A DNA stretch of 64,000 nt from a virus: IMG/VR virus record IMGVR_UViG_3300028196_000007, positions 1 through 64,000 of that record; one strand, 5' to 3'. The notes beneath the pieces are model-generated. The model had not been told where the DNA came from. It did no database searches and saw nothing but the letters and a program-made list of their open reading frames with translations. Both the position numbers and the translations under genes were made by a program. Below are positions 3,158 through 29,064 of this stretch, piece after piece (the stretch's first letter is position 1; each line of letters begins with the position of its first letter).

Positions 3158-3200
3158 AATATCTATCTTCCTTGTTTTTAGTTCGTATATAAATATATAT

Positions 3201-4299: not shown

Positions 4300-4338
4300 T
4301 TAATGTCTCCGTTGTTGAATATCCTTTTGTCCAGATTA

Positions 4339-5082: not shown

Positions 5083-5441
5083 TGACTATCTCCTTTTTTA
5101 ATTCTATAACTATCAAGGTCAAAATGTTGAGTTGAGACTTCAAATATTTCTGAATTATCCTCCAATGCAACAAGCTGGTGAGGCTGGCCTCTTTCTATTG
5201 TAATACACGTACCAATTTCTATAATTGTAGAATGTTCTTCTGCAGTCTCTGTGTTAATCCATTTATATTCAAAACTTCCTCTTCCTACATACCAAGATTC
5301 TTTCTTGATTATGTGATAGTGCATTGAAAATTTATTTCCTTTTTTATTGAATCTTAAAAGCTTTCCGCAATATTCTTCATCGTTATGAATCCAGATTTCT
5401 TGTCCCCAAGCCTTGTCTACTGTTTTAGGTTTTACTATCAT
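5079..5441 (-). CDS. Cupin sugar isomerase-like protein
   Basis: KAWGxE, SMHYHxxKxESW, PHQL, EVST cupin motifs. Confidence 0.75.
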   Translation of the reverse strand: MIVKPKTVDKAWGQEIWIHNDEEYCGKLLRFNKKGNKFSMHYHIIKKESWYVGRGSFEYKWINTETAEEHSTIIEIGTCITIERGQPHQLVALEDNSEIFEVSTQHFDLDSYRIKKGDSQ

Positions 5442-6217: not shown

Positions 6218-6237
6218 ATCTTTAATATAACAAATTT

Positions 6238-9152: not shown

Positions 9153-9973
9153 ATCTGGCCTTCAATAATTTCAAGTGATGAATGAACTTTTTTCTCTAAA
9201 AAGTCTATAAGCTCAATTCCTTTGTATTTGTCAAACCAATCTTCATATGTACATCCAACTCTATTATCTGTCTTTACTTTCAGACCTAGCATTCTAGCTT
9301 CTACAACTAGCCTGCAGCATGTTTCTACTGCGTGTGAGAAAAATACCAAACCTTCGTATTCTGACATCGTCTCCATTAACTCTTTCCATTGACAGTTTTT
9401 AAGATAGTCATAATCTATTTTTTGTATTTCACAAAGCTGTATTCCTTTATTACTTCTTTTACCTGGTACAACACACCACTTGCCATTTTTAGATTCTTTA
9501 TACATTTTTCTTATATAGTCAAACTGCTCTTGTGAAAATTGCGTACAGCCAAGAGATTCGACGTTTGTTAAGTCAATATGTTTTAGTAATAAATCTGCAG
9601 AGTGATTTGTTAGACAGAAAACCTTTTGAGCACCTCGATAAAATGTTTGGTTAACAACTTCAGACTCTGGTGCAGCAAAATCTTTATACATTGCAGTGTT
9701 TCTAGACCTAACATATTTTTGGTCGCGTTCAATAATAATATAATTTACCCCTGATGAAAAGAACCAGTTCTTATTTACCCCTGATAAACCAACAAAGTTA
9801 GAAATGATAAAAGTATCAGCCTTATGTATGGTCGGGTCAAACTTTTCACTTTTGACAGTTTTTATATTATGTCCTTCTTTAGCCAAATAATCGATTAAAA
9901 CTCCATCGGAAATTTCAGCCCCTCCTAGTACCTCAGCTTCAAAGAAGTCTGAAATGTATATTAAATTCTTCAT
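9149..9973 (-). CDS. GT-B glycosyltransferase
   Basis: GGAE near N-terminus; ETxxRxxVEARMLG. Confidence 0.7.
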   Translation of the reverse strand: MKNLIYISDFFEAEVLGGAEISDGVLIDYLAKEGHNIKTVKSEKFDPTIHKADTFIISNFVGLSGVNKNWFFSSGVNYIIIERDQKYVRSRNTAMYKDFAAPESEVVNQTFYRGAQKVFCLTNHSADLLLKHIDLTNVESLGCTQFSQEQFDYIRKMYKESKNGKWCVVPGKRSNKGIQLCEIQKIDYDYLKNCQWKELMETMSEYEGLVFFSHAVETCCRLVVEARMLGLKVKTDNRVGCTYEDWFDKYKGIELIDFLEKKVHSSLEIIEGQI

Positions 9974-9975
9974 AT

Positions 9976-10428
9976 CTATTTACTCATTAAAACGTCATCA
10001 TCGAACTGATAGTCTATAAGCTGTAATAAGCCCATTTTCTGTAAAAACAATGTTCTGTAACTATTATTATAAAACCTGGCTAAGTCTTGTTTCAGTGTTC
10101 TAATATAAAATCTGTTCGAAGACTCTTCCATTATAAGCTTAGGTATATCCAAAGCTCTTCTTTTGTATTTTGGTATCATACGAATACCAGTATCTCTTGC
10201 AACATTATTGAATACAATAGTACTAATCTCATTTAGATTGAGTACATGAACCATATTTCTAAATCCTGGATTTAGTATCAAGAACATATATTGCTTTTTC
10301 TCACCTTGTCTATTTTCATAAAGATTAGAGACTACCATCCCTTTTTGCAAATCATTTTTTGGTATAATTAACCTTGATTGCATTTTCATCAAGTGCATGT
10401 TATAATAATTTGTAGAAGGTCTTTTCAT
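9976..10428 (-). CDS. Hypothetical protein
   Basis: 150 aa ORF within the operon. Confidence 0.65.
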   Translation of the reverse strand: MKRPSTNYYNMHLMKMQSRLIIPKNDLQKGMVVSNLYENRQGEKKQYMFLILNPGFRNMVHVLNLNEISTIVFNNVARDTGIRMIPKYKRRALDIPKLIMEESSNRFYIRTLKQDLARFYNNSYRTLFLQKMGLLQLIDYQFDDDVLMSK

Positions 10429-10913
10429 TATATATCGCCTAAAGCAAAGCCTTTAACTTTTTTACAAGCTTCTAAATAACTTATAAAGTATTCAGCTTCT
10501 TCCATGTTTACTTTAGATTCATAAGTGTCAGTTACAAGTCTAGACTTTTCTTCAACTGTAAGTGGCTGTATTGGTGCGTAACACCATTTTATTAGTTCGT
10601 CACCTACGCTTTCTCCATCCTTTACAGCTTGAACTTTACCTACAGGGAAAACCATTGCTGTTGCTGTTTCTATTGTTGCTGGGTACCAATATGATTCTCC
10701 ATCATCGTACCTTAAGTCTTTTAATAAATCTGGCATCCCTTCTTCAAATTTTTTCATATCAAAATCTGGATGCTTTTTATAATTTAAAGGATATTCATTA
10801 GTATAATATCCTGTACTTAAATCCATTTTAGATGCTCCATTTTTTTCATCAAATTCTTGAAGGACCATATTTTTTCCTGTTATCGGGCTTTTGCCCCAAT
10901 TTTCTTTATTCAT
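10428..10913 (-). CDS. Hypothetical protein
   Basis: 161 aa ORF, coupled to both neighbours. Confidence 0.65.
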   Translation of the reverse strand: MNKENWGKSPITGKNMVLQEFDEKNGASKMDLSTGYYTNEYPLNYKKHPDFDMKKFEEGMPDLLKDLRYDDGESYWYPATIETATAMVFPVGKVQAVKDGESVGDELIKWCYAPIQPLTVEEKSRLVTDTYESKVNMEEAEYFISYLEACKKVKGFALGDI

Positions 10914-12186
10914 AAGTCTGTAACTCCTCTAATTTAGGTATTTCAACATCAAAGCTTGGTAAGTATTTTTCAAGTATCTCACCAAATTTAACAGTCATGG
11001 TATTAAGTGAAAAATTATCTTTCATGTGTTTTGTTTGTTTTCTAGATTTTTCTAAGTATTTTTTATAATTTTTATGCAAGTCCTTAAGGATGCTTGAAGC
11101 AAATCCATAGTTTACATAAAACCATTGTGAATCCTTCATGATAACATTTTCCCATTCAACTGACTTGTGTATTTGCTTCATCTCGCCTTGAAGTAGTATA
11201 CCATATTCATTTAAAAAGTCAACATGACCTGACCACCCAGGTGCTATAGTTGGTTTTCCTGTGATTGAAAATTCAGCAAGAGGTCTGCCATATCCTTCAC
11301 CATGCGTAAAGCTAAGCATCGCTTTAATCTTAGGGTGATTGTATAAAGAATTCATTTCATTATCTGCTAAGTCTCCCCAAACAATATAAATACTAGGAAG
11401 TTTTTTGCCTTCAGATTTAAAGCCAGATTTGATATTATTTATCTTGCTTTTTAACTGAACTTCTTCAGGTACAGAAAAAGCTATTCCTGTCTTTATTACC
11501 AAAGCAGGTTGGTTTCTTTCTGCAAGTGGTGAAAAAGTACTTAAGAATGTGTGTATTGTACCACCTATATCTTTTCTATCGTGTAGAAAGTCACCGTTCA
11601 TCCAATGTCCACATAGAAGGAAGCAGAAGTCTTCTTTTATACCGCTCATAGTTTCAGAAACAGTTTTTTCAATATCACTTGTTTTATTATATACATTAGT
11701 GTCAACTCCTTCGAACAACACTTCTAATGGCTTCACTGAACTTAATGTTTCAACTGCTTGTTTTGTTCTTGAGTCCATTTTGTCATATGTACATGTAAAC
11801 CCTCTAGCTGAATGCTGTGAAGGTACGATGTTCATGTCCATTCTATTCATTCCTTCTATCCATGTAGGTGAAACCCTGTCAGTTTCAATTCCTGCAGTTA
11901 TTCCAATATTGTATTTACCTACAGGCTGAAACTCATTTGGAACTGTTACTTGAATCCAAATATCAGGTTGTTCTTTCATGTCGCCTTGTAATGCAAGCTT
12001 TGCCAAATCAGAATTCTCTTCTCTATTCAGCTCTGTTCTAGGACAGTTTCCCCATCTCTGGTCAATAATATTTATGTCAAATTTATTCAAATCAATTAAA
12101 CTTCTTATTAAGTCTCTTGAGTGATTTCCGTAACCACTTCTGCTTGATGCAGGACAGCTAATTACTATTTTTGGTTTGTTATTCAT
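10906..12186 (-). CDS. GT4-like glycosyltransferase
   Basis: SGYG, RKDI, GEGYGRPLAE, WSGHVDF. Confidence 0.82.
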   Translation of the reverse strand: MNNKPKIVISCPASSRSGYGNHSRDLIRSLIDLNKFDINIIDQRWGNCPRTELNREENSDLAKLALQGDMKEQPDIWIQVTVPNEFQPVGKYNIGITAGIETDRVSPTWIEGMNRMDMNIVPSQHSARGFTCTYDKMDSRTKQAVETLSSVKPLEVLFEGVDTNVYNKTSDIEKTVSETMSGIKEDFCFLLCGHWMNGDFLHDRKDIGGTIHTFLSTFSPLAERNQPALVIKTGIAFSVPEEVQLKSKINNIKSGFKSEGKKLPSIYIVWGDLADNEMNSLYNHPKIKAMLSFTHGEGYGRPLAEFSITGKPTIAPGWSGHVDFLNEYGILLQGEMKQIHKSVEWENVIMKDSQWFYVNYGFASSILKDLHKNYKKYLEKSRKQTKHMKDNFSLNTMTVKFGEILEKYLPSFDVEIPKLEELQTYE

Positions 12187-13601
12187 TATGATAATACTCC
12201 TGTTGGATAAGTAGGTTCTTCTTCGTTCATATCTATTAGTTTAAATCTTTTTAGCGGCTTCCATGTGTTGAATAGACTTTCGAAAGAATTTATAACAGCG
12301 TTACACATACCTTCTCTATTGAATCCGTTTTCTATTGCCCAAGCTCTACCTTCTTTTCCGCATAATTCTCTTTTTTCTTTCTCCATATCATACCAGTATT
12401 TTAGTCCTTTTTCAATATCGCATATTGTAGGTCTGCTATCATATATATATGGTGTCACCGGCGAACCCTGAATACTTTGATTTGGCCAAAGAGGGTATGT
12501 CCACTTTCCATAATCTTTAGATATTAAACCTGTACTGTTACTAGGCTTATCTTCTGTAAAGTGTTTTACAGACAGCTCTTCGCCGTCAACCTTAAAGCCC
12601 ATCTGGTCCTGCAGACCACCAAGTACGGTTGCTATAGTAGGTGTTCCAGACATAAGAGATTCCATATGAGATAATCCAAAACCTTCTGCTGAAGATGGAT
12701 TACAAGTGACATCTGCTATATTATATAACACGTTTAGCTGAGTGTGTGGTAATTTAGAAGTACTAAATATTAAATTCATTTTAGGGTATAATCTATTTGC
12801 CACTTCTTGAAGATGAGTACCGTGTTCATCTACAACATCAGTGTGCATTATTAAAAACGCCTTGCTTCTATCTTCTTCACTAAGCTTAGAAGAAAACTGG
12901 CCAAATGCCTGTATTAAATCAGAACAGCCTTTTCTTCTAATATTTCTACTGTTATAAAAAGCAACGAATTCAGGTTCAACGTCTCCAAACAGATTTGTTG
13001 ATGTTCCAATAAGCTCAGGTGACATATCATCTAAAGGGAAGTATTTCTTGTCATCAATTCCATGCTGCACATAGTGTAAATCTTGCCCTTCTACTCTTGG
13101 TTTTCTTTGGCACACATGCTTGTTTATATTGTATGTCTGTTTAGATATACCCATAAGCAAGTCGCATGATTCGTAGAAAGGTTCATTCCAATGAGGGAAT
13201 GGAAGGTCATCCCATATATTATAGTATGCTATTGGCGTATGCTCTCTTAATTCATGACACATATCATATAGCCATCCCCAGAACCTAGGGTCTGTAAAGT
13301 GCATGATAGCGTCTGGTTTTTCTAAAGATATAACATCTCTTAATACATCTGGATTACCATATCCAGAAAATGGTAGTATCTTTATATAACCATCAGTTAC
13401 GCCGCCTGACTCTTGAATTGTTTCAGGTGCTTGTGATAAGTCTACAAATCCTTTTCCTTCGTCAGGGTGTTTGATAGCACCACCAATTTGTACCCAATCA
13501 TATTTGTGCAATGTTCCCATTACAATTTCTCTTGACATTGTACCTACACCGGAATGTAGCCTCATGTCATCTCCTAATAATAGTATCTTCTTTTTTGCCA
13601 T
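12186..13601 (-). CDS. GT4-like glycosyltransferase
   Basis: HGID, RNIRRK, EGFGLSxxESL, GGLQDQ. Confidence 0.85.
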   Translation of the reverse strand: MAKKKILLLGDDMRLHSGVGTMSREIVMGTLHKYDWVQIGGAIKHPDEGKGFVDLSQAPETIQESGGVTDGYIKILPFSGYGNPDVLRDVISLEKPDAIMHFTDPRFWGWLYDMCHELREHTPIAYYNIWDDLPFPHWNEPFYESCDLLMGISKQTYNINKHVCQRKPRVEGQDLHYVQHGIDDKKYFPLDDMSPELIGTSTNLFGDVEPEFVAFYNSRNIRRKGCSDLIQAFGQFSSKLSEEDRSKAFLIMHTDVVDEHGTHLQEVANRLYPKMNLIFSTSKLPHTQLNVLYNIADVTCNPSSAEGFGLSHMESLMSGTPTIATVLGGLQDQMGFKVDGEELSVKHFTEDKPSNSTGLISKDYGKWTYPLWPNQSIQGSPVTPYIYDSRPTICDIEKGLKYWYDMEKEKRELCGKEGRAWAIENGFNREGMCNAVINSFESLFNTWKPLKRFKLIDMNEEEPTYPTGVLS

Positions 13602-13816: not shown

Positions 13817-14215
13817 TTATGAGATAATCACAACACTTTTTTTTAATTTTTTTGCCTCTTTTATTGTATTTTCACTACCACTAGACTTTGCACCTTCTGG
13901 TATAAATGCTATTAAGTAGTCTACATAATTTGCTATCATCTTGTTTCTATGAAAGAAATTTTTTGGTTGGTATTTCTTACCATAATAATTTTCGTGCAAT
14001 GCTGAATATAAATTTTTTGGAGTATGAGCTGGATTAAATTCGATATATTTGCAGTTTAATTCTATTGCATATTTCTTTGCAAATTTATCTGCACCATCTC
14101 TACAGCCACCGGAAACTATTGTTATATCGTCAAATCTACCTTTTAAAGAAAATATAGTATCTTTTATTTTTCTAAAATTTTGATATTCTCTACTTCCTAT
14201 TACCCCTATTTTCAT
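13817..14215 (-). CDS. SLOG family protein (DUF2493/YspA-like)
   Basis: IGSR, VSGGxxxGAD, RNxxI, LIAF, SSGSxxT. Confidence 0.8.
   Translation of the reverse strand: MKIGVIGSREYQNFRKIKDTIFSLKGRFDDITIVSGGCRDGADKFAKKYAIELNCKYIEFNPAHTPKNLYSALHENYYGKKYQPKNFFHRNKMIANYVDYLIAFIPEGAKSSGSENTIKEAKKLKKSVVIIS

Positions 14216-15633: not shown

Positions 15634-15634
<1 letters not shown>
15374..15634 (-). CDS. Small zinc-ribbon protein
   Basis: CEKC ... CTDCGH. Confidence 0.7.
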
Positions 15635-17540
<1,906 letters not shown>

Positions 17541-17551
<11 letters not shown>

Positions 17552-18266
17552 GTTTATCCTCTTTTTCTAATTCATACTCTGATTTTGTACACACAACGCC
17601 TGTCTGCTCTTTTACAAGTTCAGGTGTTGTACATGATTGATTAAAACTTGCAAACTCTGTGTGTGATTTCCATCTTCCACATCCAGCAAATAAACAGCCA
17701 AACGCGTTAGATAAATAATCTGCTTTAGCATATTCACATTTTTTTGTAATGTCACACATAGGTTTAAAACCTTCAGCCAAACCTATACCTGCTTCTATCA
17801 TCTTTTCTCTTAATAGCCAGTGTAAACCAACAATAAATTCTTCTTCACAAAATTGAAGTCTTCTTGTCATTTGACCTCGAAGCGAACCTATATTTTGCTC
17901 TACAACATAACTACATTCTCTTGACATAAGATTTAGTGCAGACATTTCTACTTGAGAAAACATGTTTACTTCACGCTCTTCTCTAATCTCCTCAAGCTGT
18001 TCCAATGTTTCTATAACCTCTTGTTTAAATTTAGGGTCTTTCTGCATTGTATCCCATACTTGTGTATATACAACATAGTTTGGTTTTTCGCTTACCTTAT
18101 AGTCTTTAAATTTAATTCCAACTCTAGCTCTTGAATGCTGATCGTATTGACATACTGGTGTTCCTGTTACTTTATATGTTATCATTTGAGAATCAGGATT
18201 CCACATTAGTATTTCAACGTCTAGACATTCGATGCCTTTTTTAATTTTAATATTACTCATTTTCAA
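17541..18266 (-). CDS. Divergent ThyX-fold protein B
   Basis: TYKVTG..CQYDQHSRAR (cf. TFxIxGVSR..HQxxRHR); NIGSLRGQMTRR; Cys-rich PMC..KC tail. Confidence 0.55.
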
Positions 18267-19068
18267 ATAACTTTTTATCAGATTCTTTCAAATCCTCATA
18301 TTTAATATTTTTAATAAACTCTAATACATTTTCTGTATCTTCTGATATCACTCTTAAGTATTCACCTATTAAAGGGAATTTTTCTGTAACTGATTCCACA
18401 ACCTTTTTATATAATTCATTTAATGCCCAGTCTTTATTGTCCATTAGATTGAAAGTGCCTGACGCATTAAAACCTCTCATGCTCACAAGTGAAAGTAGAT
18501 TCTGTCCAAAATGATATGAGTGCTGGTATGATTGTGGTAAAAATGACCTTGCAGACTGCCAAGAAGCTTGGTCTGTATCTAAAGCTTTTGAATAAAGAGC
18601 CTTAAGTCTCTCCATAACTTTTATCTCCTTCTCCTCTAAAGAAGAAAGAGTTACGATGTCTACATCTGATTTATTGTTATCACGGCAGCCTATACTCATA
18701 AAGCTAGTAAATGGTGTTTGTGTGTGATAGTCGAATAGCCATCTTGGTACACCTCTTACACGAAATATAAACTGTATCATTTCTCTTGCTTGAGGCAGTG
18801 TGTTGTGAGTCATTACAGCCTTTACAACTTCAAGCTTTCCTTCTGGTGAAGTTAATGGCCATTTTCTTTTAAATTCATTATCACCCCATGTCGATGTGCT
18901 AGTAACAAACATAGACTTATAAGGATTTGACATGTGGTCTTCTAATGTGACCTCAACCTCATCTGATAATATTTTGAATTCTGTTTTTAGTAGTGGCTGT
19001 TCCTCAGGTAATGTTCCCATTACAATTCTCAGGTTTTCTACCACGTCGTAACTTAATTTATCTTGCAT
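18253..19068 (-). CDS. Divergent ThyX-fold protein A
   Basis: H...E..QFIFRVRGVPRW, AxWQSARSFLPQS, GQNLLSL, FP; RHR motif absent. Confidence 0.65.
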   Translation of the reverse strand: MQDKLSYDVVENLRIVMGTLPEEQPLLKTEFKILSDEVEVTLEDHMSNPYKSMFVTSTSTWGDNEFKRKWPLTSPEGKLEVVKAVMTHNTLPQAREMIQFIFRVRGVPRWLFDYHTQTPFTSFMSIGCRDNNKSDVDIVTLSSLEEKEIKVMERLKALYSKALDTDQASWQSARSFLPQSYQHSYHFGQNLLSLVSMRGFNASGTFNLMDNKDWALNELYKKVVESVTEKFPLIGEYLRVISEDTENVLEFIKNIKYEDLKESDKKLFENE

Positions 19069-19123
19069 TTCTATAACCTTTTTATTTAATATAAATATAA
19101 CAAAACTTTCCGATATATTAAAA

Positions 19124-22100
19124 TTATATCAACTTTTTTATCGAAGAGTTTTTGCTTTTTGTGAAACCAAATTTGTTTTTTGATGAAGGTATTAAAACAA
19201 ACTCACCTTCGTTAAGACCTGATATATCTCTAGTATTAAATATGGTTATAAACAACTGTTTGACGTCATCTTCTAACACAATTTTATAAAATTCCCTACC
19301 TGTCTTTTTAGATTTTTTAATAATTATTTTGTTTATAATACCATATAGTTGGAACTGACCTTTATCCAAGTCATCAGGTATTTGCTTAGGACTTGTTAAC
19401 TGTGCAATAATATCAGGTGCGTGGTCGTAGAAAAACTCCTTATATTTTGCAAAAGGGTGTTCGTTAAAATAAAAATCAAAGTATTTCTTTTCCCATTCAA
19501 ACTTTTGTGTTTTGTCCCAGTCTTTTTCACCTGTAGTTTCCTGTAAGATTTCTTGAATTATTGCATCGATTGTCTGCGACTTCTTTTTGTTTCTACAGGC
19601 ATTTACTATTTCCTCTAACACTCTAGAGTTTTTAAGTATAGAGTTAAAATAACCTAGTCTACAAAGAGGTTCGTATGTACGCTTTGTAACTTTTTTACTA
19701 AGTATAAATTCTATAAGTTCTTTAATTGTATTGATATCACTTTTTTTGATAGAGTTTATAAGTGCAGCATCTTTATCTGGTATACCTTTTACAAGGTTTA
19801 ATCCAAATTTTATAGAATCATTTTCATAGTCTATTTCAAAACTATTACCTGTCTGTCCTATTTCGAAGTCATTAAACTTTATACCTTTACTTTTTATCTG
19901 TTTAACAAACCAGCTTAACTCTGCATTTGTTGAATGGTTAAGAAGCGAAGCGTAATACTCTTTTGGAAAATGTACCTTTTGCCACATTGATATATAAGCG
20001 TTCATAGCATATGCTAGCGAGTGAGACTTATTAAATGAGTATTCTGAATATTTACCTAGTACGTCTAGTAACTCATCTATATCTCTATCCTTCATGCCAT
20101 TTGCTTTTGCGCCTTTTTTGAATCTATCAAGCATATCATAGAAATTACCTTTCTTTTCTTGATTACCTTTATGTAGTAATTTAAGAATTTTTCTACCACC
20201 ATCTGCTTCAGCAAGTGTAAAGCCACCAATTTTTTGTAGAATAAACATAATCTGCTCTTGAAATATTGGAACACCAAATGATTCTCCTAATATATCCCAC
20301 AGCAGTGGTGATTTTTCGTCTAGCAAAAATTTTGCCTCTTCCGGATTTTGTCGGTTTTTGATATACTCGTCAATTCCTCCGGCCTGAATTATTGCAGGTC
20401 TAAACATGGCATTGATGGATGATAAGTCAACAATGTTTTTAGGTTTTATTGTCCTAATTAAATTTATCATATTATCAGAGCCAAATTGAAATATGTCTTT
20501 ACAGTTACCTGTTTCGAACTCATCATAAACCATTTTGTCATCGAAGTCAGATTTTAGAATTCGTTGTTCTAAACCTTTTTCTCCATGCTTGCTTTCTATA
20601 AGTTTGAATGTATCATTTATTACTGATGCTGCTTTAAGACCAAGAATATCTAGCTTACAATAACCAAGTTCACTAACCTCTCGTTCATCACCACCTTCTT
20701 GTACACCAGTTACTGTTTCGCCTTTTAATCTTAACAAAGGTATTTCTGAACAGTCTAAATCTTTATTACTTACTAATATACCTGAAGCGTGTCTACCTGT
20801 TTGTCTTACCATACCTACCATTTTAGGTGCAACTTTCAAGAACAGTTCTTTGTTGTCCTTTATAAACGCCATTAAGTCTTTTTCACCTTTTTTCTGTGCA
20901 ATGCTAAAAGCGTTTTTCATTTCTATATCTATAGGTGAGTTTGGGTCATCGCTAAAATATCCTGTAAGTTTGTTTGATAATACAAAGTCAAGTTCATGTA
21001 TTCTACATAAATCCTTTACAGTTGTTTTAGCACCAAATTTTCCAAAGTTTGCAATGTGACATACACGTTCAGTACCAAACTTTTCTTTAAGATAACCTTC
21101 GCACAACTTTTGTGTATCGGAATCAATGTCCAAATCCACATCGGCAGGGTCAATTCTAGCAGGGTTTAAGAACCTTTCAAAAATTAAATTATGTCTTATC
21201 GGATCGATTTTTGTAATATCTAGTACAAATAGTACAAGTGAACCACCAGCAGAACCTCTACCAGCACCAGTTGCACCACCTACTTTGTATACAAAATTAT
21301 TTAATAAGTCATCTAGAATTAAAAAATAATCGATAAATCCTTTGTCTTTTATAATGTCTAATTCGTATTTAAGTCTGTCTGTATATCGTTTGTCGTTTTC
21401 AGGTAGTAAGCCATTACCTATTTTTTCAACCCATTTAACTTTTAGCTTATCCATAAATTCAGTTTCACTTTGCTTTTTGTCTTCATGATACTTAGGGAAG
21501 TTGTCAGGATATTTTGGCAATTCAATATTTACCTTGTCGTTTATTTCAAAAGTAGAATCTATTGCAAGTTCAAGAAAGTTTTTATCCATTCCATATTTTT
21601 CTGCTTCAGCATATATTTCATCTATCTCTTTAATATAAAGTGAGTGTACTGTATAAAACCAATCATCTGGAGTGTAAGACTGTACAGTTTCTCTTTGACG
21701 TATTACATATAAAAGATATTGAATGTACCAATCATCTTTATTTGCATAGTGATAATCAAGAGAGAACACAGGCTTTATTCCTGTTTTCTGATATACTTTA
21801 TGATAGAAATTATTACATTGCATTTGTATATCTAGATTGTTTAGCTGTATCTCCAAATAAAAATCATCACCAAACTTATCTCTATATTTTTTTATAAGTT
21901 CTAATGCTGCAACTTCATTTCCTGCAAGTATATATTGATTCCATTTTGATTGTAAACAACCTGTTGTAATTATATTATTCTCATCTAGTGTATTGTATAC
22001 TTTATCCATACTTGAAAGAGGCTTTCTATAAAACGTATCGAAACTTGCATTAGATACTTTTAATATATTCTTTACACCTTCATAGTTTTTTGAATAAACT

Positions 22101-22477
22101 AAAGTGTGATTGTTTGCAGCAGCAGTCTTATCAAGGTGTTCACCAGCATCACCAATTACATCTGTAGAACCTTTTTTAAGTTCAAGGAACTTTTCATTAT
22201 CTGAGTGGTATAAGTCATTTGTATATAGTTCACAACCTACGATTGGATTTATATTACTTTCCTTTGCATGTTTATAAAACTTGTAGAAAGACGACATATT
22301 TCCATGTTCGGTTAGTGATATACCAGGTGCACCAACCTCTTTTGCACGCGTCATTATATCTTCAATTTTTGTTACGCCATCCCCTTGTGAGTAAGTAGAA
22401 TGGCCATGCAAAGGAACGTAATTTGTAAATTTATTTCCTGTTTTGTATTTTAGTTTTAAGTCACACTTTTGACACAT
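19124..22477 (-). CDS. dnaE: DNA polymerase III alpha subunit (family C)
   Basis: PHP motifs HxHSxYS, EHG, GCE, DYHY; GRGSAGGS, FERFLNPAR, DVDLD, KLDILGL, FNKSH. Confidence 0.95.
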   Translation of the reverse strand: MCQKCDLKLKYKTGNKFTNYVPLHGHSTYSQGDGVTKIEDIMTRAKEVGAPGISLTEHGNMSSFYKFYKHAKESNINPIVGCELYTNDLYHSDNEKFLELKKGSTDVIGDAGEHLDKTAAANNHTLVYSKNYEGVKNILKVSNASFDTFYRKPLSSMDKVYNTLDENNIITTGCLQSKWNQYILAGNEVAALELIKKYRDKFGDDFYLEIQLNNLDIQMQCNNFYHKVYQKTGIKPVFSLDYHYANKDDWYIQYLLYVIRQRETVQSYTPDDWFYTVHSLYIKEIDEIYAEAEKYGMDKNFLELAIDSTFEINDKVNIELPKYPDNFPKYHEDKKQSETEFMDKLKVKWVEKIGNGLLPENDKRYTDRLKYELDIIKDKGFIDYFLILDDLLNNFVYKVGGATGAGRGSAGGSLVLFVLDITKIDPIRHNLIFERFLNPARIDPADVDLDIDSDTQKLCEGYLKEKFGTERVCHIANFGKFGAKTTVKDLCRIHELDFVLSNKLTGYFSDDPNSPIDIEMKNAFSIAQKKGEKDLMAFIKDNKELFLKVAPKMVGMVRQTGRHASGILVSNKDLDCSEIPLLRLKGETVTGVQEGGDEREVSELGYCKLDILGLKAASVINDTFKLIESKHGEKGLEQRILKSDFDDKMVYDEFETGNCKDIFQFGSDNMINLIRTIKPKNIVDLSSINAMFRPAIIQAGGIDEYIKNRQNPEEAKFLLDEKSPLLWDILGESFGVPIFQEQIMFILQKIGGFTLAEADGGRKILKLLHKGNQEKKGNFYDMLDRFKKGAKANGMKDRDIDELLDVLGKYSEYSFNKSHSLAYAMNAYISMWQKVHFPKEYYASLLNHSTNAELSWFVKQIKSKGIKFNDFEIGQTGNSFEIDYENDSIKFGLNLVKGIPDKDAALINSIKKSDINTIKELIEFILSKKVTKRTYEPLCRLGYFNSILKNSRVLEEIVNACRNKKKSQTIDAIIQEILQETTGEKDWDKTQKFEWEKKYFDFYFNEHPFAKYKEFFYDHAPDIIAQLTSPKQIPDDLDKGQFQLYGIINKIIIKKSKKTGREFYKIVLEDDVKQLFITIFNTRDISGLNEGEFVLIPSSKNKFGFTKSKNSSIKKLI

Positions 22478-22561
22478 AGATTACCTTTTTTATATTATAC
22501 TATAATATAACAAATTTATGGGAGATATGAAAGGATTTGAGGAAGTATTTTTTGAAAGTTA

Positions 22562-23053
22562 TTAACAATAAGTCCACGGCTTATTTCCATTCTCCATAAA
22601 CCTATGAAGAGATGTTATCTTAACATATATTTTTCCAGGCCTATATTTTGGCCAACAAGCTATAAGTGCAGACATAACCATCATATAAGTCTGGTTGTCA
22701 TAGCAGAAATTGTTATCGAAGTTTTGACTTCTTACAAAAACATGCAGGTCTATCTTTCCATCTCTTGCTATTGCCTGTATTGTAGAAAGACATGCTGCTA
22801 AATCTGGATTATCTTGATAAGCTTTATGAAGTACACACTGTCTAGACTCTATGCCTTTTGTTTCGCATATCTGAAGTATGTCTTCTATAATCTCGTTTCT
22901 TTCAATCTCATCGCCTTCTAAAGCAGGAGGTATTTTTTTATCCATAAAGTCTGAATCGACCTCTACCTCGTAATTAAAATTGTATACTTCTCTATACGTG
23001 CCACTGTCTTGTTTGCTTAACAGGCTTTCTATTTTCTGTGCTATTTTCTTCAT
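22562..23053 (-). CDS. Minimal thymidylate-synthase-fold enzyme, dCMP-modifying type
   Basis: LAACLSTIQ (catalytic Cys), L...RSQN.......D, SLH; Asp at the Asn177-equivalent position. Confidence 0.72.
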   Translation of the reverse strand: MKKIAQKIESLLSKQDSGTYREVYNFNYEVEVDSDFMDKKIPPALEGDEIERNEIIEDILQICETKGIESRQCVLHKAYQDNPDLAACLSTIQAIARDGKIDLHVFVRSQNFDNNFCYDNQTYMMVMSALIACWPKYRPGKIYVKITSLHRFMENGNKPWTYC

Positions 23054-24056
23054 AATGCTTTGCTATCGATAAATATGTTTTTGTTATACCTTCTGCTGAA
23101 TTCATTGCATTTGCAGACAGATTGTAATGTTGATATAATTTATAAAAGTTTTCTGATTTCCCATTGTGTCTTGCAAGATAGTCACCTTCTGGAATTAAAT
23201 TTATGTGTTCTGTTAAATCGTTGCATTGTGTAATTTCTTGAATAAGGTATAAGTAATTTTCAAATGGCATTGGCTTATCTTTACTTATAATAAAGTCTTT
23301 ACCCCAACCATTATCCATCATAAGTATAGTCAAAAACATATCAGCGAAATATTCATATCTCATATAGTCTTTTTCTATTGAAGGGTCAAGTAATACATCA
23401 AGTTTGCCATTTTTGTTAAGTGGAGACAATGTATAAGGTATGTTGTTCTTACTACAATATACTTTTTCTGTTATCTTTCTTATCATAGACGAGTTATCGA
23501 ATGGTGCGTCACCATAAATAAACACAGGCTTTATTACCATCATTTTTTCGAAGTCCATAGCCTGTTTTACAGCAAGCTCACCTGAATACTTTGAAAGACC
23601 ATATAGTGTTTTTGGGTCTATAGGTGCTGTTTCATTAAACTCTCCATTGTTCTTCATGTATTCATCAGGATTGAATACGGCTGTAGTAGAAAAGTATATC
23701 ATTTTACAACCAACACTGCTTGCTATGTTAATAAGATTTTGAGTACTTATAATATTTGAGTTAACAGCTTCGTATGAAAAGTCATCGCACTTATCTGTAT
23801 TCACATAAGCAGCAGTGTGAATTATAATATCGTCTTCAGTAAGTCTTGATGCTACCTTGTCTAGTACATCAGTATCTGTAACATCTACCTCTTTTGATTT
23901 CACAAGCTTTCCGTTTAAATAACTAAAGTCATTTGTATATTCTGCTAAATCAGAATTGTCCATTACCTCAAATCTTTCTGTCCCGCTTTCTTCCAACGCT
24001 TTAATTATAGAGGTTGCTAGCATTCCACTTTCACCTGTTATAAATAATTTTCTCAT
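22992..24056 (-). CDS. RmlD-like NAD(P)-dependent NDP-sugar reductase/epimerase (extended SDR)
   Basis: ITGxxGML, IHTAAYVNTDKC, YFST..VF, YGLSK..GE. Confidence 0.82.
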   Translation of the reverse strand: MRKLFITGESGMLATSIIKALEESGTERFEVMDNSDLAEYTNDFSYLNGKLVKSKEVDVTDTDVLDKVASRLTEDDIIIHTAAYVNTDKCDDFSYEAVNSNIISTQNLINIASSVGCKMIYFSTTAVFNPDEYMKNNGEFNETAPIDPKTLYGLSKYSGELAVKQAMDFEKMMVIKPVFIYGDAPFDNSSMIRKITEKVYCSKNNIPYTLSPLNKNGKLDVLLDPSIEKDYMRYEYFADMFLTILMMDNGWGKDFIISKDKPMPFENYLYLIQEITQCNDLTEHINLIPEGDYLARHNGKSENFYKLYQHYNLSANAMNSAEGITKTYLSIAKHYEENSTENRKPVKQTRQWHV

Positions 24057-24475
24057 AATTTCTCCTGTATTTTTTCTGCTGATTGTGACACTGTATCTTT
24101 TGTCGTATCTATTCTTTTTATATCCATTCCATAGAAATTTTCTGCAATTTCAAGTACATGGTAAAACACTCTTCTGTGTTCTTTCCAATCTCTTATATCC
24201 AAATCTTTTTCATCGTGCTTTACAAATCTTTCTTTAACAAGCTCAAAAGAACAGTCGATAAAATAAAACTCTTCACCTCTACTGTAAGCTTCTTTCCACA
24301 ATGAAAACCACTTGTCTTCATCTATGTCTCTATTATATAATCTAGAGTACACTATTTGTGATAAAAAAGACCTGACATAAACTAGCGCGTTTCCTTCTGC
24401 GTTGCTTACAACCTGTCTTCTTATAGAATCTTTTCCTGTTTTATCAGGTCCATCTATGTGTATTATTTTTGCCAT
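24053..24475 (-). CDS. dNMP/thymidylate kinase-like protein
   Basis: IDGPDKTGKD P-loop, RSFLSQIVY, IDT. Confidence 0.78.
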   Translation of the reverse strand: MAKIIHIDGPDKTGKDSIRRQVVSNAEGNALVYVRSFLSQIVYSRLYNRDIDEDKWFSLWKEAYSRGEEFYFIDCSFELVKERFVKHDEKDLDIRDWKEHRRVFYHVLEIAENFYGMDIKRIDTTKDTVSQSAEKIQEKL

Positions 24476-24843
24476 ATTTTCATTTTAGTTGATATATAAG
24501 TTAGCTGTTCTGTTTCTACCTTTCCAAATATAAGTACTTTGTTATATACAAGTATATCGAATTCATTTTCTCTATGTAAACCAAATACATCATCTGCAAC
24601 TTTAGTAGGTTCGAAATCTCTGTTTAAATCTTGTAGAGGTATGCAGCATAAGAATTCTCGTTCGTCATCTTTTTCTAATGAATATCCCCAATTGTCTCCT
24701 ATAAAAGACTTTGTTTTTATTCTATCCTCTACCAAAGATTCCCAAAACTTAATTTCTTGTTTTGCAGCTGGATTCTCGTAGAAGCAATAAGTTAACTTAA
24801 CTTCCTGTACTACCAAATCCTCCATCTCCTCTACTTGTATCAC
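24463..24843 (-). CDS. Hypothetical protein (start uncertain)
   Basis: ORF filling the gap between dUTPase and kinase. Confidence 0.55.
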   Translation of the reverse strand: MIQVEEMEDLVVQEVKLTYCFYENPAAKQEIKFWESLVEDRIKTKSFIGDNWGYSLEKDDEREFLCCIPLQDLNRDFEPTKVADDVFGLHRENEFDILVYNKVLIFGKVETEQLTYISTKMKIWQK

Positions 24844-25258
24844 TTAACTCATCAACTTCTTTAAATTCAAAATTAGGCACAGGCATGATAATAATCTGAC
24901 CTACTCTATCACCTGGTGAATATCTTGAAATGTCTGTTGAACAACCTGATTTTTTAAATCTTAACTTTACAGGGCCTCTGTAACCTGAGTCAACTACTCC
25001 GACACAGTTTGCTAGCATTAGATCTGTTTTTGATACAGAGCTTCGCGGGAATAGATAACCTACATATCCTTCAGGTATTTCCATAGCCAAGCCTGTATCG
25101 TATTCGATATACTTAACTTCTTTTGATGTATAACCTTCTTTATCGTCACTATATTTTATCTTCATTGACACTGATGTTAAATCCATACCTGCATCGCCTT
25201 GCTTTGCATATTTTGGTATTACCGCTGTTGGGTCTAATTTTTTTATATTAATCTTCAT
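24797..25258 (-). CDS. dut: Trimeric dUTPase
   Basis: AGMDL, PRSS, GVVDSGYRG, GDRVGQ, RGDGGFGSTG. Confidence 0.95.
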   Translation of the reverse strand: MKINIKKLDPTAVIPKYAKQGDAGMDLTSVSMKIKYSDDKEGYTSKEVKYIEYDTGLAMEIPEGYVGYLFPRSSVSKTDLMLANCVGVVDSGYRGPVKLRFKKSGCSTDISRYSPGDRVGQIIIMPVPNFEFKEVDELSDTSRGDGGFGSTGS

Positions 25259-26186
25259 TGTGAATAACCTCTATTATATTTCCGTTAATTGTTTTAATTC
25301 CTTCGTTTAGTTTTCTATCAAGTGTTTTCTGTGAGTATATACCTAAGTTCTTTCTTAGGAACACTTTGAATCCACTGTCATGAAGCTTGTTTGCATTTTG
25401 TATATCATCATCTATACAGAAAGCTACTTTATCTGTATCAAAGTTATTGATAATATATTTTTCTTTTTCTTCATCAAATACAATAGCATCATAACAAATA
25501 TTGTTATCAGCCAACCACTTTATTGTATCTGAATATATTCTAAAGTATTTCTTGTATGGTCTTGCTGTAAGCAATACTACATTATATTCTTCACATGTCT
25601 TCTTCATAAAAGATTCTACACCTGACAATACTTTAAGTTTAGCTTTAATACCGCAAGTTCTATATTCAGACTTAATTTTGTATTGCTCTTTTTTGTCAAC
25701 CTGACTTTTGAATTCAGCAAGAGATTTATACCCTGCCCATTCTAAAAAACCACCTGGCCAATCGGCAAGTACTCCATCGATATCAATAAAAGCTATTTGC
25801 TTATCTGAAGCCTTAATTCTATCCATTACTTCTTCTTGATTGAACTTTGCTTCAACAACTTTTGATTTATCTATAAATTTTTCATACAAATCATCTACAC
25901 CAAAACCATTTAATTGTATAATACCAAATAAGTATTTTAGTACATCAACACATTCTTCTAATACATTGTCGTTAATATCTTCTGTATTTTTAGAAGTGTG
26001 CATTTTCCAATCTATCTCATCGAGTACTTCATATACCTCTTTAGACAGCGCTAGAACGTACTCCTTGTTCCATTTAATCTTAAGTTCTTTATCCTCCATC
26101 ACCTCATTTAACGATAAACCTTGTTTTTCGAAAAATTTATTAGTAAATTCTTTTTGTATCTTAAATACTTCTTTTAATCTATCCAT
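25248..26186 (-). CDS. Fusion: all-alpha NTP pyrophosphatase (dCTPase/dUTPase, MazG-like) plus HAD 5'(3')-deoxyribonucleotidase
   Basis: ExxEVLDEIDWK..EECVD; IDIDGVLAD, LTAR, IDDD. Confidence 0.82.
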   Translation of the reverse strand: MDRLKEVFKIQKEFTNKFFEKQGLSLNEVMEDKELKIKWNKEYVLALSKEVYEVLDEIDWKMHTSKNTEDINDNVLEECVDVLKYLFGIIQLNGFGVDDLYEKFIDKSKVVEAKFNQEEVMDRIKASDKQIAFIDIDGVLADWPGGFLEWAGYKSLAEFKSQVDKKEQYKIKSEYRTCGIKAKLKVLSGVESFMKKTCEEYNVVLLTARPYKKYFRIYSDTIKWLADNNICYDAIVFDEEKEKYIINNFDTDKVAFCIDDDIQNANKLHDSGFKVFLRKNLGIYSQKTLDRKLNEGIKTINGNIIEVIHNED

Positions 26187-27118
26187 TCTTTCACCCTGTC
26201 TAATACTTCGTTAGCTTTTATTTTATGATTCCATTCTGCAAATCTACCTAACAAAGTGATTCCTTTTATTTCATTGATTTTTTGGCTTTTCTCTATCTGT
26301 ATAGGTAAATCCTCAAACTTCATTTCTATTTTATTTCCTTCGATGCTGTCACCTTCTATAGGCTTAACAGATTCGTATACAATATAATCTTTAAAATATG
26401 TACATCTTGTCCAGTCTGCATGTATTGAATATATGTAGTCATATGTTAATGAAGGATGCTTACTATCCATAGCCTCAGGTACTGTAAATCCATAACTACA
26501 TTTATAAAAAGATTTTTTGCTTGTTGAAAAATCAAATCCTAGTTTTGTACATTCGTTATCAACATCTGCGCATATCTTTCTTAATATGTTTATATTTAAA
26601 GTATTTATTATATTACCATATTCTAATGTTGAGCCATTTGCTAACTCTAATTGGCTCAAGGTTGTGTCAATTGATTTTACAGATGTTTTTATTAACTGAC
26701 CTCTTTCTTCTATAATACTAAGTAGTCTCGTAAATATTTCTTTATAGCTATCTTCACCCAACTCATCAACTTCGCAATGCATGATTTCTGTCTTACCTTC
26801 TGACAAATGACTGCCTTCGCCTTCATTGCCTCTTGTTCTCATGCTGTATTTCTTTTTAAAGTTTTCGTCAGGTGAATCATACACACCTTCTTTTTCATGA
26901 TAACCTATAACACACTTTTCAATTTTTAATTCTAAATCATTTGCAACTTCCTTTACAAACCATTTCATGTTTGGATTTGACTGCAAAAGTCTAGGGCCTG
27001 GTATAAACGGCATGTTTAATTGACCTAAAGGTTTTTCGTCTATAACCTTATAGTCTTTATTAAAATATGCAGCTATCAAACCTGCTGGTCCTGCTCCTAA
27101 TATGTAATTTTGTTTCAT
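26174..27118 (-). CDS. FAD-dependent oxidoreductase, UDP-galactopyranose-mutase/PPO-like
   Basis: ILGAGPAGL, GPR, C-terminal LLGRFAEW. Confidence 0.72.
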   Translation of the reverse strand: MKQNYILGAGPAGLIAAYFNKDYKVIDEKPLGQLNMPFIPGPRLLQSNPNMKWFVKEVANDLELKIEKCVIGYHEKEGVYDSPDENFKKKYSMRTRGNEGEGSHLSEGKTEIMHCEVDELGEDSYKEIFTRLLSIIEERGQLIKTSVKSIDTTLSQLELANGSTLEYGNIINTLNINILRKICADVDNECTKLGFDFSTSKKSFYKCSYGFTVPEAMDSKHPSLTYDYIYSIHADWTRCTYFKDYIVYESVKPIEGDSIEGNKIEMKFEDLPIQIEKSQKINEIKGITLLGRFAEWNHKIKANEVLDRVKEWID

Positions 27119-27204
27119 CTGTAACCTTTTTATTTATATATAATATAACAAATTTTTACGACATATAATACATTTTATAGTATAATTGTTGTATCCAATC
27201 TTCT

Positions 27205-29064
27205 CTAATTGATTTCACAACTACCTCCTGCACATGCTAGCTCACCAGATAGATTTGTATTATCTTCAATTTCTATAACATTTGATAAATCTACATCTGT
27301 TAGTACCTTCATCATCTCGTTGTATTTTTCTTTAGTAATATCTTCGAATGGAGCTTGAGTATATGTTCCGCCATCATAAGGTAGAACTGATAGGCCATTG
27401 TAGTATTTTCTATTAAGCCACATCCATTCTCCTGCTAAATCCCATTCGTTTTCTTTCAAGCTAATCGTTGCAGAAACGTTATGTGTGTTACTGCCATTTC
27501 TATGTCCTGGTACTACCCATTCAGTTGCAACTTTCTTAACTCTTTCAAGTGTGTTAAATGGAGATTCTGTTCTTAATATCGAACCTTCAGGTGATTTTTG
27601 AGGTACTTGAATAACTGCAGTATCATGTGGTCTAAAATATTCATCTTCAACTAACTCTGGATGGTTTGTTTTTAGATGTTGGTATATTGACTCGTTTTTG
27701 CCAACTCGAATTCTACGTACATAGTATTCATTGTGCCATGCATGAATACCTGAACTTGTACCTAAAACTAAACTTGTAGTACCTGCTGGCTTTACAGTCG
27801 TTGTTCTAGCTGATTTGTTTATTCCGATAATTTTAGCAACTCGAGTATTCTCTCTCTTAACTAAACTTGCTGCTTTTTTCATATCATATCCAAGTACTAC
27901 ACCTGAACCAATACCTGTCATACTTACACCAATCAACGCATCCTTTTCTGTTGTTTCTCTCCAAACATCTCGCAAATAATGAAAATCTGTATACCCTGCC
28001 TGTAAAGTTCCAACAAACGCAGCAGCCTTAACTCTTTCGTTTAAATCTTCTTGTGATTCTATATTAGAAACATTTACTTCACAAAGATTACAGAACTGAT
28101 TTGGTCTTAATGCTATTTCACAACAAGGATTGGTTCCCCAATCTTTATCGTTATTAAAGTATATACCTGGTTCACCAGCACCTGAAAGCTCTACTCTTTT
28201 CCATAGGTCCATAAAGAATTCTTGAGTTATTTTATGTCTCATTAGACAAGCTGAATTGTTCGCTCTACCTCTTTGTGGATTTGTTTCCCACCAGTTACCG
28301 CTTTTACAACTAATCATTTCGTCATCATCAGCATTGAATAAACTAATAAGTGCGGCTCTTCTAATACCGCCAGCCAATACAGCATCAGCAATGTGGCAAA
28401 TAATATCATGAGCTTCCAATGTAGTTAGTCTTTCTCCAGCCTGCTTAGTCTCCAATATTCCTGTAAGTTTAAGAATACATTCTTTTAATGGCTGAGGTCC
28501 TGGAGCTTTACCACCAGAAGTAACTAGCATAGAACCTTTAGGTCTTACATCTGAATAATCAAATTCTATATTACTTCCACCACCATTCATATATGATTTC
28601 ATAAGAACTTTGATAGCGTCAGCCCAACCTTCAATAGAATCACCTACTAAAAATCTTCTCTTTCTTTTCGGCCAAGGTTTTTGTATTACAGGTAGCTTGT
28701 TTACGTGATGTCTTTGTACTGAGTATCCAACTCCAGTACCACCTAGTAATAAAAACATAGTTTCACTAAAAGCGTCAACGCAATCGATTGGAAGATACGC
28801 ACAGTTGTAAATTCTGTTTGGAGATATCTCAATAGGTTTTCCACCAAATTGTAAACTACGCATTGACGGTAGTATTTTTTTATCATACACTAATTTATAT
28901 TTTTCTTCAATCTCATCTTTTAACATCGGGAATTTCTTTTGGTGCATTTTTTTATTACGAGTCACCAACTCTTCCCACGTCTCTCTTCTGTTTAAATCTG
29001 TCGCATACTTTGCGTATTTCATATAAACTGTAATTTCCGATAATATTTGATTTGATATTTCCAT
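27205..29064 (-). CDS. nrdJ: Class II (B12-dependent, monomeric RTPR-type) ribonucleotide reductase
   Basis: RETWEE, YNC, GGTGVG, RRAALI, TNPCCEI, VKPAGT, C-terminal CAGGSC. Confidence 0.92.
   Translation of the reverse strand: MEISNQILSEITVYMKYAKYATDLNRRETWEELVTRNKKMHQKKFPMLKDEIEEKYKLVYDKKILPSMRSLQFGGKPIEISPNRIYNCAYLPIDCVDAFSETMFLLLGGTGVGYSVQRHHVNKLPVIQKPWPKRKRRFLVGDSIEGWADAIKVLMKSYMNGGGSNIEFDYSDVRPKGSMLVTSGGKAPGPQPLKECILKLTGILETKQAGERLTTLEAHDIICHIADAVLAGGIRRAALISLFNADDDEMISCKSGNWWETNPQRGRANNSACLMRHKITQEFFMDLWKRVELSGAGEPGIYFNNDKDWGTNPCCEIALRPNQFCNLCEVNVSNIESQEDLNERVKAAAFVGTLQAGYTDFHYLRDVWRETTEKDALIGVSMTGIGSGVVLGYDMKKAASLVKRENTRVAKIIGINKSARTTTVKPAGTTSLVLGTSSGIHAWHNEYYVRRIRVGKNESIYQHLKTNHPELVEDEYFRPHDTAVIQVPQKSPEGSILRTESPFNTLERVKKVATEWVVPGHRNGSNTHNVSATISLKENEWDLAGEWMWLNRKYYNGLSVLPYDGGTYTQAPFEDITKEKYNEMMKVLTDVDLSNVIEIEDNTNLSGELACAGGSCEIN

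Follow-up and report, generated by a model that had tools for sequence, protein, structure and literature searches.

We analyzed a 64,000-nucleotide stretch of viral DNA (the window), which is the first 64 kb of the 86-kb IMG/VR record IMGVR_UViG_3300028196_000007 (estimated completeness of the record 50%) and carries eleven contiguous open reading frames (ORFs) at 17541–29064 on the minus strand. The explanation that we prefer, and hold with middling confidence, is that a mobile two-part pyrimidine-nucleotide module sits here among replication genes, and that the part containing a minimal enzyme of the thymidylate synthase fold (mini-TS) modifies deoxycytidine monophosphate (dCMP) before replication. 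A first-pass annotation had described the eleven genes, all of which are present, as a candidate new pathway for pre-replicative cytosine modification with a dedicated DnaE. Cytosine modification at this stage agrees with a conserved module, a mini-TS of the cytosine type, kinase fusions and a pyrimidine deoxynucleoside triphosphate (dNTP) pyrophosphatase; the accompanying claims about DnaE, a sugar-activating enzyme pair and glycosyltransferases did not hold up. The word "new" has to be qualified, since hydroxylation of dCMP at C5 by D169N thymidylate synthase homologs, followed by glycosylation, was published in 2026 (PMC13326640). Hidden Markov model (HMM) and structure searches agreed with ten of the eleven proposed family assignments, including the second ThyX fold, and left a protein of 126 amino acids (aa) without a family.

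The genes co-occur across phage genomes, and the same set was found in very different phages. Twelve close relatives are collinear with the window across the whole block, which says little because their whole genomes are collinear. G001 (90.6 kb, 82% complete) is related to G004 (97 kb, 96% complete). Each has only 11 of 98 ORFs in common with the window genome: eight module genes, DnaE, DnaB, and UvsX or an exonuclease. Between the window and these two, the ThyX paralogues ThyXa and ThyXb are 50–58% identical and DnaE 25–28%. The same gene set in varying order is present in several other contigs and in G005 (391 kb, complete), which has a canonical ThyA (E = 1.6e-80) besides the module. In G007 (91 kb, complete, GC content 50%) the module lies beside PolA instead of DnaE, in the order kinase–uracil-DNA glycosylase (UDG)-like fusion, 259-aa flavin adenine dinucleotide (FAD) protein, MazG-haloacid dehalogenase (HAD) fusion, IscA, ThyX, 139-aa mini-TS, short-chain dehydrogenase/reductase (SDR) and a second small kinase. 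The lineage of the window includes G003 (145 kb, complete), with 63 of 98 ORFs in common; in G003 the mini-TS is fused to the kinase and the SDR is absent.

Co-occurrence was counted with iterated local HMMs at 38 distant loci, within 8–10 kb of a ThyX-type gene. The FAD protein and MazG-HAD were each found at 36 of the 38 loci, and the two loci without them are both at a contig edge. The kinase was likewise counted at 36 loci, a number in which the iterated HMM may have taken in other P-loop proteins. The SDR was found at 23 loci, the mini-TS at 20, the 126-aa protein at six, a GT4-type glycosyltransferase at two and the trimeric dUTPase at one; the trimeric dUTPase is confined to the lineage of the window. 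The genes for mini-TS, small kinase and SDR are adjacent to one another in the window, L055, L097 and G007. Altogether, the module consists of an invariant core, made up of a ThyX subfamily with a Cys-rich tail, the FAD protein, MazG-HAD and the kinase, and a frequent accessory trio of mini-TS, small kinase and SDR.

The mini-TS, for which 38 homologues were found, matches the Pfam thymidylate synthase family weakly (E = 0.008); its profile matches RB69 gp48 with E = 2.5e-4 and Escherichia coli ThyA with E = 5.3e-4, and a dCMP hydroxymethylase chain (6l18) gave a weak sequence match (E = 0.5). Sixteen family members share R71, C88, R108-S109-Q110, D119 and S148-L149-H150 without variation. A MAFFT alignment with ThyA and gp48 equates C88 with C146, R71 with R126, R108/S109 with R166/S167, N111 with D169, D119 with N177 and H150 with H207. 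The mini-TS thus has the catalytic Cys (ThyA position 146) and the phosphate-binding R166/S167, which are kept in all members read by eye, as is an Asp at or beside position 177. Its RSQN motif is identical to that of gp48 (Q168-N169 as in gp48). The enzyme lacks approximately ThyA residues 20–105 and 210–264, and the C-terminal part is missing from gp48 too. According to the sections of Lee et al. (2026, PMC13326640) on which we draw, thymidylate synthase homologs with N177D and D169N produce 5-hydroxy-dCMP using flavin and O2, D169N is diagnostic for these synthases, and the product is later O-glycosylated on DNA; in RB69 and RL38JI a Tmk-like "nucleotide kinase" adjoins the synthase, and a UDP-galactopyranose mutase (UGM) is also encoded by RL38JI. 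The window mini-TS carries both residues, Asn at ThyA position 169 and the dCMP-type Asp at 177, and its sequence supports assignment to the cytosine type. Fusions of the kinase to the mini-TS were found in two other lineages, that of G003 (L050/L046; hhalign E = 7.4e-6) and L104, which makes a nucleotide-level, pre-replicative route likely. An ORF of L092 was left out of this count, as its N-terminal half overlaps the SDR gene.

In the MazG-HAD protein the N-terminal domain is of the dUTPase_2/MazG type (PF08761, E = 3e-5; PF03819, E = 4e-4) and the C-terminal domain is a HAD domain resembling NT5C (PF06941, E = 1e-3). Its profile matches dimeric dUTPases of Leishmania (E = 0.002) and, weakly, the dCTPase gp56 of RB69 (hhalign E = 0.002). 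The kinase matched dTMP kinase models only (TIGR00041, E = 2.7e-5, under the cut-off). L014 (8170–9078) encodes a Tmk-like kinase joined to a domain of the UDG superfamily (PF03167, E = 2.7e-15) with the motifs GINPS and HPA, and a dCMP deaminase gene lies nearby. Further kinase–UDG fusions were seen in L016 (8116–8964), where the UDG motif looks degenerate, and, by eye, in L061 of G007 (6852–7751).

A further core component is the ThyX pair. ThyXa matches Thy1 (PF02511) with 30.8 bits against a Pfam cut-off of 24.8 and has an Atlas feature score of 0.97 to Thy1 clusters. ThyXb has no Pfam match, hhalign detected no relationship between ThyXa and ThyXb (Prob 0.1), and PDB sequence searches with ThyXa, the ThyXa profile and ThyXb gave nothing useful. 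The ThyXb model (predicted local distance difference test, pLDDT, 63) has only ThyX-family chains as top Foldseek matches, with E-values from 8e-4. The ThyXb profile found 56 cluster representatives at E ≤ 1e-3 among 1.84 billion, and retrieves single-chain proteins of about 330 aa that match Thy1 and have the same Cys-rich tail; Thy1 was matched in nine of ten members scanned. It is structure and intermediate sequences, and only these, that connect ThyXa with ThyXb. Six of the ten scanned members (P0048, P0057, P0062, P0084, P0073, P0056) carry inteins (Hint, LAGLIDADG) within the Thy1 domain.

Alignment with the single-chain forms showed that ThyXa retains the N-terminal motifs, S-x-G-x-R-D-N-N and SWQxARxxLP and has lost R-x-R, and that ThyXb retains DQxxRxR(V/I)G (HSRAR), RRLxFCEEE and the Cys-rich C-terminal tail. 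Canonical ThyX has the signature RHRx7S within one chain. Neither window protein does: ThyXa reads YHTQ...S-I-G-C-R, and ThyXb has HSRAR without the Ser-Arg part. A model of the ThyXa–ThyXb complex scored 0.66 against 0.00 for the best control; 58 of 80 solved complexes attain this value, as do 2 of 110 mismatched pairs. The runs share at least 84% of contacts and the partner pLDDT is at least 80. In the predicted complex the HSRAR segment of ThyXb sits against the R129 and R174 loops of ThyXa. The high score may stem from resemblance to solved ThyX tetramers. We interpret the pair as a split ThyX, predicted to form an obligate A/B heteromer with complementary active-site halves. The single-chain ThyX of G007 (346 aa; Thy1 E = 4e-18) contains both halves and the Cys-rich tail. 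The pair resembles the canonical homotetrameric ThyX (PF02511) in its fold and in nucleotide-binding Arg/Ser motifs that are recognizable when A and B are combined. It differs in the split into two complementary paralogues and in having a UGM-like FAD protein always alongside. The subfamily also departs from canonical ThyX in its motif, R-x-R ... S-x-G-x-R-D-N in place of RHR, with a two-residue insertion before the second Arg, and in the tail. This tail is probably an iron-sulfur (Fe-S) site, as the IscA gene beside the Cys-tail ThyX of G007 hints. That gene (L061, 9441–9836; PF01521, E = 1.7e-17) encodes an IscA/HesB-type Fe-S carrier and lies directly upstream of the single-chain ThyX. The sections of the literature covered by our search describe neither a ThyX with such a Cys-rich tail nor a phage base modification derived from ThyX.

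From the gene identities, signatures, fusions, co-occurrence and the predicted heteromer we infer the substrates, the products and the order of steps. Mini-TS, minimal Tmk-like kinase and RmlD-like SDR would form one part, most likely acting before replication. The MazG-like pyrophosphatase would convert dCTP to dCMP and so feed the mini-TS, whose Cys88 would attack C6 of dCMP, allowing modification of C5. In the window phage the product would most probably be 5-hydroxy-dCMP, because the mini-TS shares the Asn169/Asp177 signature with the flavin-dependent 5-hydroxy-dCMP synthases. The Tmk-like kinase would yield the diphosphate, and host enzymes and the phage polymerase would finish the route. 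The other part would comprise the ThyX heteromer with its Cys-rich tail, the UGM-like FAD protein and MazG-HAD; it would act on a pyrimidine dNMP and deliver either dTMP or a second non-canonical base.

This scheme resembles the glycosylated 5-hydroxycytosine pathway of RB69, DLP3 and RL38JI, as presented in the parts of Lee et al. (PMC13326640) used here, in the catalytic Cys, Asn169, Asp177 and the gp48-identical RSQN motif, in the absent C-terminal folate-closing segment, and in the adjoining Tmk-like kinase and the all-alpha pyrophosphatase of dCTPase type. As in RL38JI, there is a UGM(-like) gene, and glycosyltransferases are encoded in the window too. Unlike RB69 gp48 (238 aa), the mini-TS has about 85 N-terminal residues fewer, and Leu, not Glu, at position 143. 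It is also always accompanied by a ThyX-type enzyme, a small FAD protein and MazG-HAD, none of which is described in those parts of the paper; glycosyltransferase genes are not conserved with the mini-TS, and some members of its family keep Asp169. The logic is that of T4 gp42, gp56 and gp1, from dCTPase through a TS-fold dCMP enzyme and a kinase to the polymerase. It differs from T4 in that the mini-TS is without folate-binding parts and has Asp169 replaced; the window kinase is Tmk-like. If this explanation is correct, diverse uncultured phages (more than 60 IMG/VR loci, 56 ThyXb-family clusters) would have modified cytosine made by the smallest known enzyme of the thymidylate synthase fold. 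The mini-TS would reveal which parts of the fold C5 chemistry requires and what the source of the flavin is. The Cys-tail ThyX with its FAD partner and A/B split would be a new way to power thymidylate synthesis or a new base-modifying enzyme. The answers would also bear on the ways in which marine phages escape restriction and CRISPR, and on bias in metagenome sequencing.

Several observations weigh against dCMP modification by the mini-TS. The assignment to 5-hydroxy-dCMP synthases rests on two residues, because the mini-TS profile matches gp48 no better than it matches ThyA. About 85 N-terminal residues present in gp48 are missing, so that flavin binding is only putative. The acidic residue at ThyA position 143 is absent as well, Leu85 being as in ThyA and Glu standing there in gp48; L143E occurs in gp48 and gp80 and, in the consulted sections of Lee et al. 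(2026, PMC13326640), is not the diagnostic position. Position 169 is Asn in 17 of 29 ORFs of the family, Asp in at least seven and another residue in the rest; L111 reads RSCD, and a regular-expression search found no 169 motif in L107. This variation means that the product probably differs between lineages. The mini-TS is present at only 20 of the 38 distant loci, and no module member reaches an NCBIfam equivalog cut-off. Fusion of a dCTPase to a HAD nucleotidase would cause dCMP to be wasted. In five module genomes no second ThyX was found and a canonical ThyA only in G005; G001, G003, G004 and G007 thus have no other thymidylate synthase that the search found, and the ThyX-type enzyme may simply make dTMP. 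Finally, the phage was detected in 20 run rows from 15 marine, seawater and estuary studies, two of them possible sources (all 22 rows of the search were Logan contigs), and its ready assembly from ordinary shotgun runs argues against very bulky thymine adducts.

A possible, distinctly less probable explanation is that the module supplies thymidylate and balances pools for an AT-rich genome. The dUTPases would yield dUMP (and dCMP), the ThyX heteromer dTMP and the kinase dTDP, and virion DNA would be canonical. The small FAD protein would give electrons through the Fe-S tail of ThyX, the UDG fusions would exclude uracil from DNA, and the mini-TS would be a dCMP-binding or dCMP-deaminating helper, or inactive. 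The invariant core of ThyX, FAD protein, MazG-HAD and Tmk-like kinase fits such a supply role, as do the exclusive match of the kinase to dTMP kinase models, the dimeric dUTPases as best solved relatives of the MazG domain, the lack of another thymidylate synthase in the four genomes, a GC content of 32–36%, the dCMP deaminase near the module in L014 and the sequencing of the phage DNA without trouble in 15 studies. It does not account for a mini-TS that keeps the Cys, R166/S167 and Asp177 and is fused to a kinase, which are signs of an active dCMP enzyme with a product that becomes phosphorylated, nor for the additional full ThyA of G005 or the separate trimeric dUTPase next to MazG-HAD in the window. 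It leaves the RmlD-like SDR and the UGM-like fold without a role, and the G007 ThyX, with 47.7 bits, falls below the thyX equivalog cut-off of 87.9 (TIGR02170).

The kinase–UDG fusions and the altered ThyX motifs also bear on replacement of thymine, which we consider unlikely. Here the ThyX heteromer would make a C5-modified dUMP such as 5-hydroxymethyl- or 5-hydroxy-dUMP, MazG-HAD would destroy dTTP and dTMP, and the kinase would phosphorylate the product; the UDG fusions would remove uracil misincorporated from a swollen dUMP/dUTP pool. With pyrophosphatase and NT5C-like nucleotidase in one protein, a canonical dNTP would be degraded fully to the nucleoside, and the dTTPase and dTMP phosphatase of thymine-replacing Bacillus phages act likewise. 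In the ThyX subfamily the motif is changed (R-x-R, S-x-G-x-R-D-N-N) and a Cys-rich tail is added, and G005 has a ThyA too. The consulted part of PMC13697223 associates T-modified phages with active UDG that is fused to replication proteins. Against this, the UDG motif of L016 is degenerate, the ThyA of G005 would be pointless were dTTP destroyed, standard shotgun assembly succeeds, and no ThyX-derived hydroxymethylase or hydroxylase was found in the literature searched.

The small FAD protein had been called UGM-like and paired with the SDR for sugar activation. It has no Pfam (including GLF) or NCBIfam match, and a PDB sequence search gave nothing useful. Its AlphaFold model (pLDDT 86) has eukaryotic UGMs as best Foldseek matches (E about 1e-12), with Z-scores of 20–21 and a root mean square deviation of 3.2–3.4 Å over 295–302 of 314 residues (VIA), compared with Z 17–18 for protoporphyrinogen oxidases and 15.6–16.8 for bacterial UGMs. 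The predicted structure thus has the UGM fold with an FAD Rossmann domain, in which a GAGPAG motif is present. Likeness to the UGM of Aspergillus fumigatus (AfUGM), a eukaryotic enzyme, extends to an Arg (R238) that aligns near AfUGM R327 and to a GR...W motif near the C-terminus. Unlike eukaryotic UGMs, the protein has 314 instead of about 510 aa and its profile matches AfUGM with E = 0.18 only. Its genomic partner is ThyX, not sugar genes, and protoporphyrinogen and amine oxidases are only 3–4 Z units lower. In L050 of G003 (2226–3173) a pyridoxal phosphate-dependent fold-type II enzyme (PALP, E = 7e-68) is encoded immediately upstream of the FAD gene.

The fold assignment therefore stands on the predicted structure, and the pairing with the SDR does not: the FAD gene is found together with ThyX and MazG-HAD (36 of 38 loci), the SDR with mini-TS and kinase (23 of 38), and the complete relative G003 keeps the FAD gene without the SDR. 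The candidate UDP-galactofuranose pair of SDR and UGM-like protein was rejected on this linkage. The SDR has the motifs GxxGxxA and YxxxK, its best PDB sequence match is an RmlD, the dTDP-4-dehydrorhamnose reductase 3sc6 (E = 7.5e-12), and it reaches 87.7 bits with TIGR01214 (E = 7e-25), below the equivalog cut-off of 224; judged by its sequence, the 354-aa protein appears to be only an RmlD-like extended SDR. The two classic examples of an enzyme in which flavin N5 acts as a covalent carrier are ThyX and UGM. In a further reading, which we regard as doubtful, ThyX, UGM-like protein and MazG-HAD would be a self-contained flavin/Fe-S machine that builds a second non-canonical pyrimidine dNMP instead of dTMP, so that cytosine (through the mini-TS) and thymine would both be replaced before replication; the ThyX and UGM-like pair could then pass a sugar-derived carbon unit to C5 without any glycosyltransferase.

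The first-pass annotation had found no recognizable DNA glycosyltransferase in the block. Three glycosyltransferase-like genes lie 4–9 kb downstream of the module, and they do not travel with it. They encode a GT4-like protein of 471 aa, a phrog_2170 glycosyltransferase of 426 aa and a Glyco_trans_1_2 protein of 272 aa (PF00534, E = 1e-12; phrog_2170, E = 3e-24 and E = 4e-14; PF13524, E = 5e-15). They belong to a sugar cluster (3577–13601) with genes for a methyltransferase, a second epimerase (260 aa), a cupin, a PfkB-like kinase and a UDP-glucose-dehydrogenase-like protein. In G003, L057 and L062 the GT4 gene and the gene next to it are again found downstream of the module. PF00534, PF00535 and PF20706 are absent from G001, G004, G005 and G007, although divergent DNA glycosyltransferases could escape these three families. 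Their absence from four unrelated module genomes makes glycosylation at most a lineage-specific addition. Sugar decoration of modified cytosine by the downstream enzymes is possible in the window lineage and is not a conserved output of the module. Two genes of sugar-nucleotide type (309 and 331 aa) are present in L078 of G004 (3221–5142) despite the absence of the tested glycosyltransferase families; they resemble G003 genes, and one weakly resembles the 260-aa epimerase of the window.

The first-pass version of the pathway, in which cytosine is hydroxymethylated as in T-even phages, SDR and UGM-like protein activate a sugar, and the ThyX pair or the 126-aa protein attaches it, we judge very improbable. 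A UGM-like fold and an RmlD-like SDR are indeed present, the 5-hydroxycytosine phage RL38JI encodes a UGM (PMC13326640, consulted in part), and the absence of the three glycosyltransferase families from four module genomes would suit an unusual attachment. Asn at ThyA position 169, however, points away from folate-dependent hydroxymethylation in the window phage, FAD gene and SDR do not co-vary, and nothing connects ThyX folds with glycosyl transfer.

DnaE does not appear to be dedicated to the module as had been proposed: the module-adjacent DnaEs of L014, L016 and L052 are 25–28% identical to that of the window, G007 has PolA in this place, and DnaE was found inside the flank at 21 of the 38 distant loci. 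Ribonucleotide reductase is a neighbour and not a conserved module member; its class II insertion domain matched with E = 4.5e-5, under the Pfam cut-off, and the reductase of G003 differs from that of the window. The 126-aa protein has no Pfam, PHROG or NCBIfam match and has orthologues in L014, L016, L050, L052 and L054. It was considered as the missing half of the TS fold and dropped, its profile showing no TS-like motifs by eye.

Features of the eleven-gene block and the downstream glycosyltransferase-like genes (positions in the window).
Feature	Position	Strand	Evidence
Ribonucleotide reductase, probably class II, 619 aa	27205..29064	-	phrog_367 E = 4e-134, PF02867 E = 1e-10
Small FAD Rossmann protein, UGM-like fold, 314 aa; core	26174..27118	-	predicted structure
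All-alpha pyrimidine dNTP pyrophosphatase (dimeric-dUTPase/MazG-like)–HAD phosphatase fusion, 312 aa; core	25248..26186	-	
Trimeric dUTPase, 153 aa	24797..25258	-	PF00692 E = 9e-20
Conserved small protein without family, 126 aa	24463..24843	-	
Minimal Tmk-like P-loop nucleotide kinase, 140 aa	24053..24475	-	PF02223 E = 3.8e-6
Extended SDR, RmlD-like, 354 aa	22992..24056	-	PF04321 E = 5.7e-26
Minimal thymidylate-synthase-fold enzyme (mini-TS), 163 aa, RSQN...D signature	22562..23053	-	
DnaE-type replicative polymerase, 1117 aa	19124..22477	-	phrog_405 E = 1e-242
ThyXa, diverged ThyX paralogue, 271 aa	18253..19068	-	PF02511 E = 3e-7
ThyXb, diverged ThyX paralogue, 241 aa	17541..18266	-	Foldseek top matches all ThyX
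Three glycosyltransferase-like genes, 471, 426, 272 aa	8334..13601	-	Pfam/PHROG matches

Every gene of the window is on the minus strand, and its GC content is 31–40%. Besides the block it encodes a DnaB helicase, an exonuclease, Hsp20, UvsX, gp32, GroEL/GroES and T4-like structural proteins. Among GenBank phages, the DNA of the eleven-gene block had no match, tblastn at E ≤ 0.01 gave no match for mini-TS, FAD protein and ThyXa, and no cultured relative was usable. The promoter motifs reported for the block are real: TTTGTTATATT occurs at 27142, 22504 and 19094, 5′ of the FAD gene, dnaE and ThyXa. The window contains seven copies in total, where 0.41 would be expected, and every copy is on the minus (coding) strand. 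This makes it a genome-wide motif that is not special to the block; from its sequence and distribution it would be a general promoter-like element of the phage. The other four copies, at 6224, 35519, 40527 and 60289, precede a sugar-cluster ORF, gp32 and others. GroEL (540 aa) and GroES (97 aa) are encoded at 15634–17551, directly downstream of ThyXb, and are kept in relatives to 57% identity. Between the exonuclease and the glycosyltransferase genes lies a gene for a SLOG/DprA-like protein (13817–14215; PF02481, E = 1e-10; YAcAr, E = 5.5e-9), which is kept together with these genes in G003, L057 and L062.

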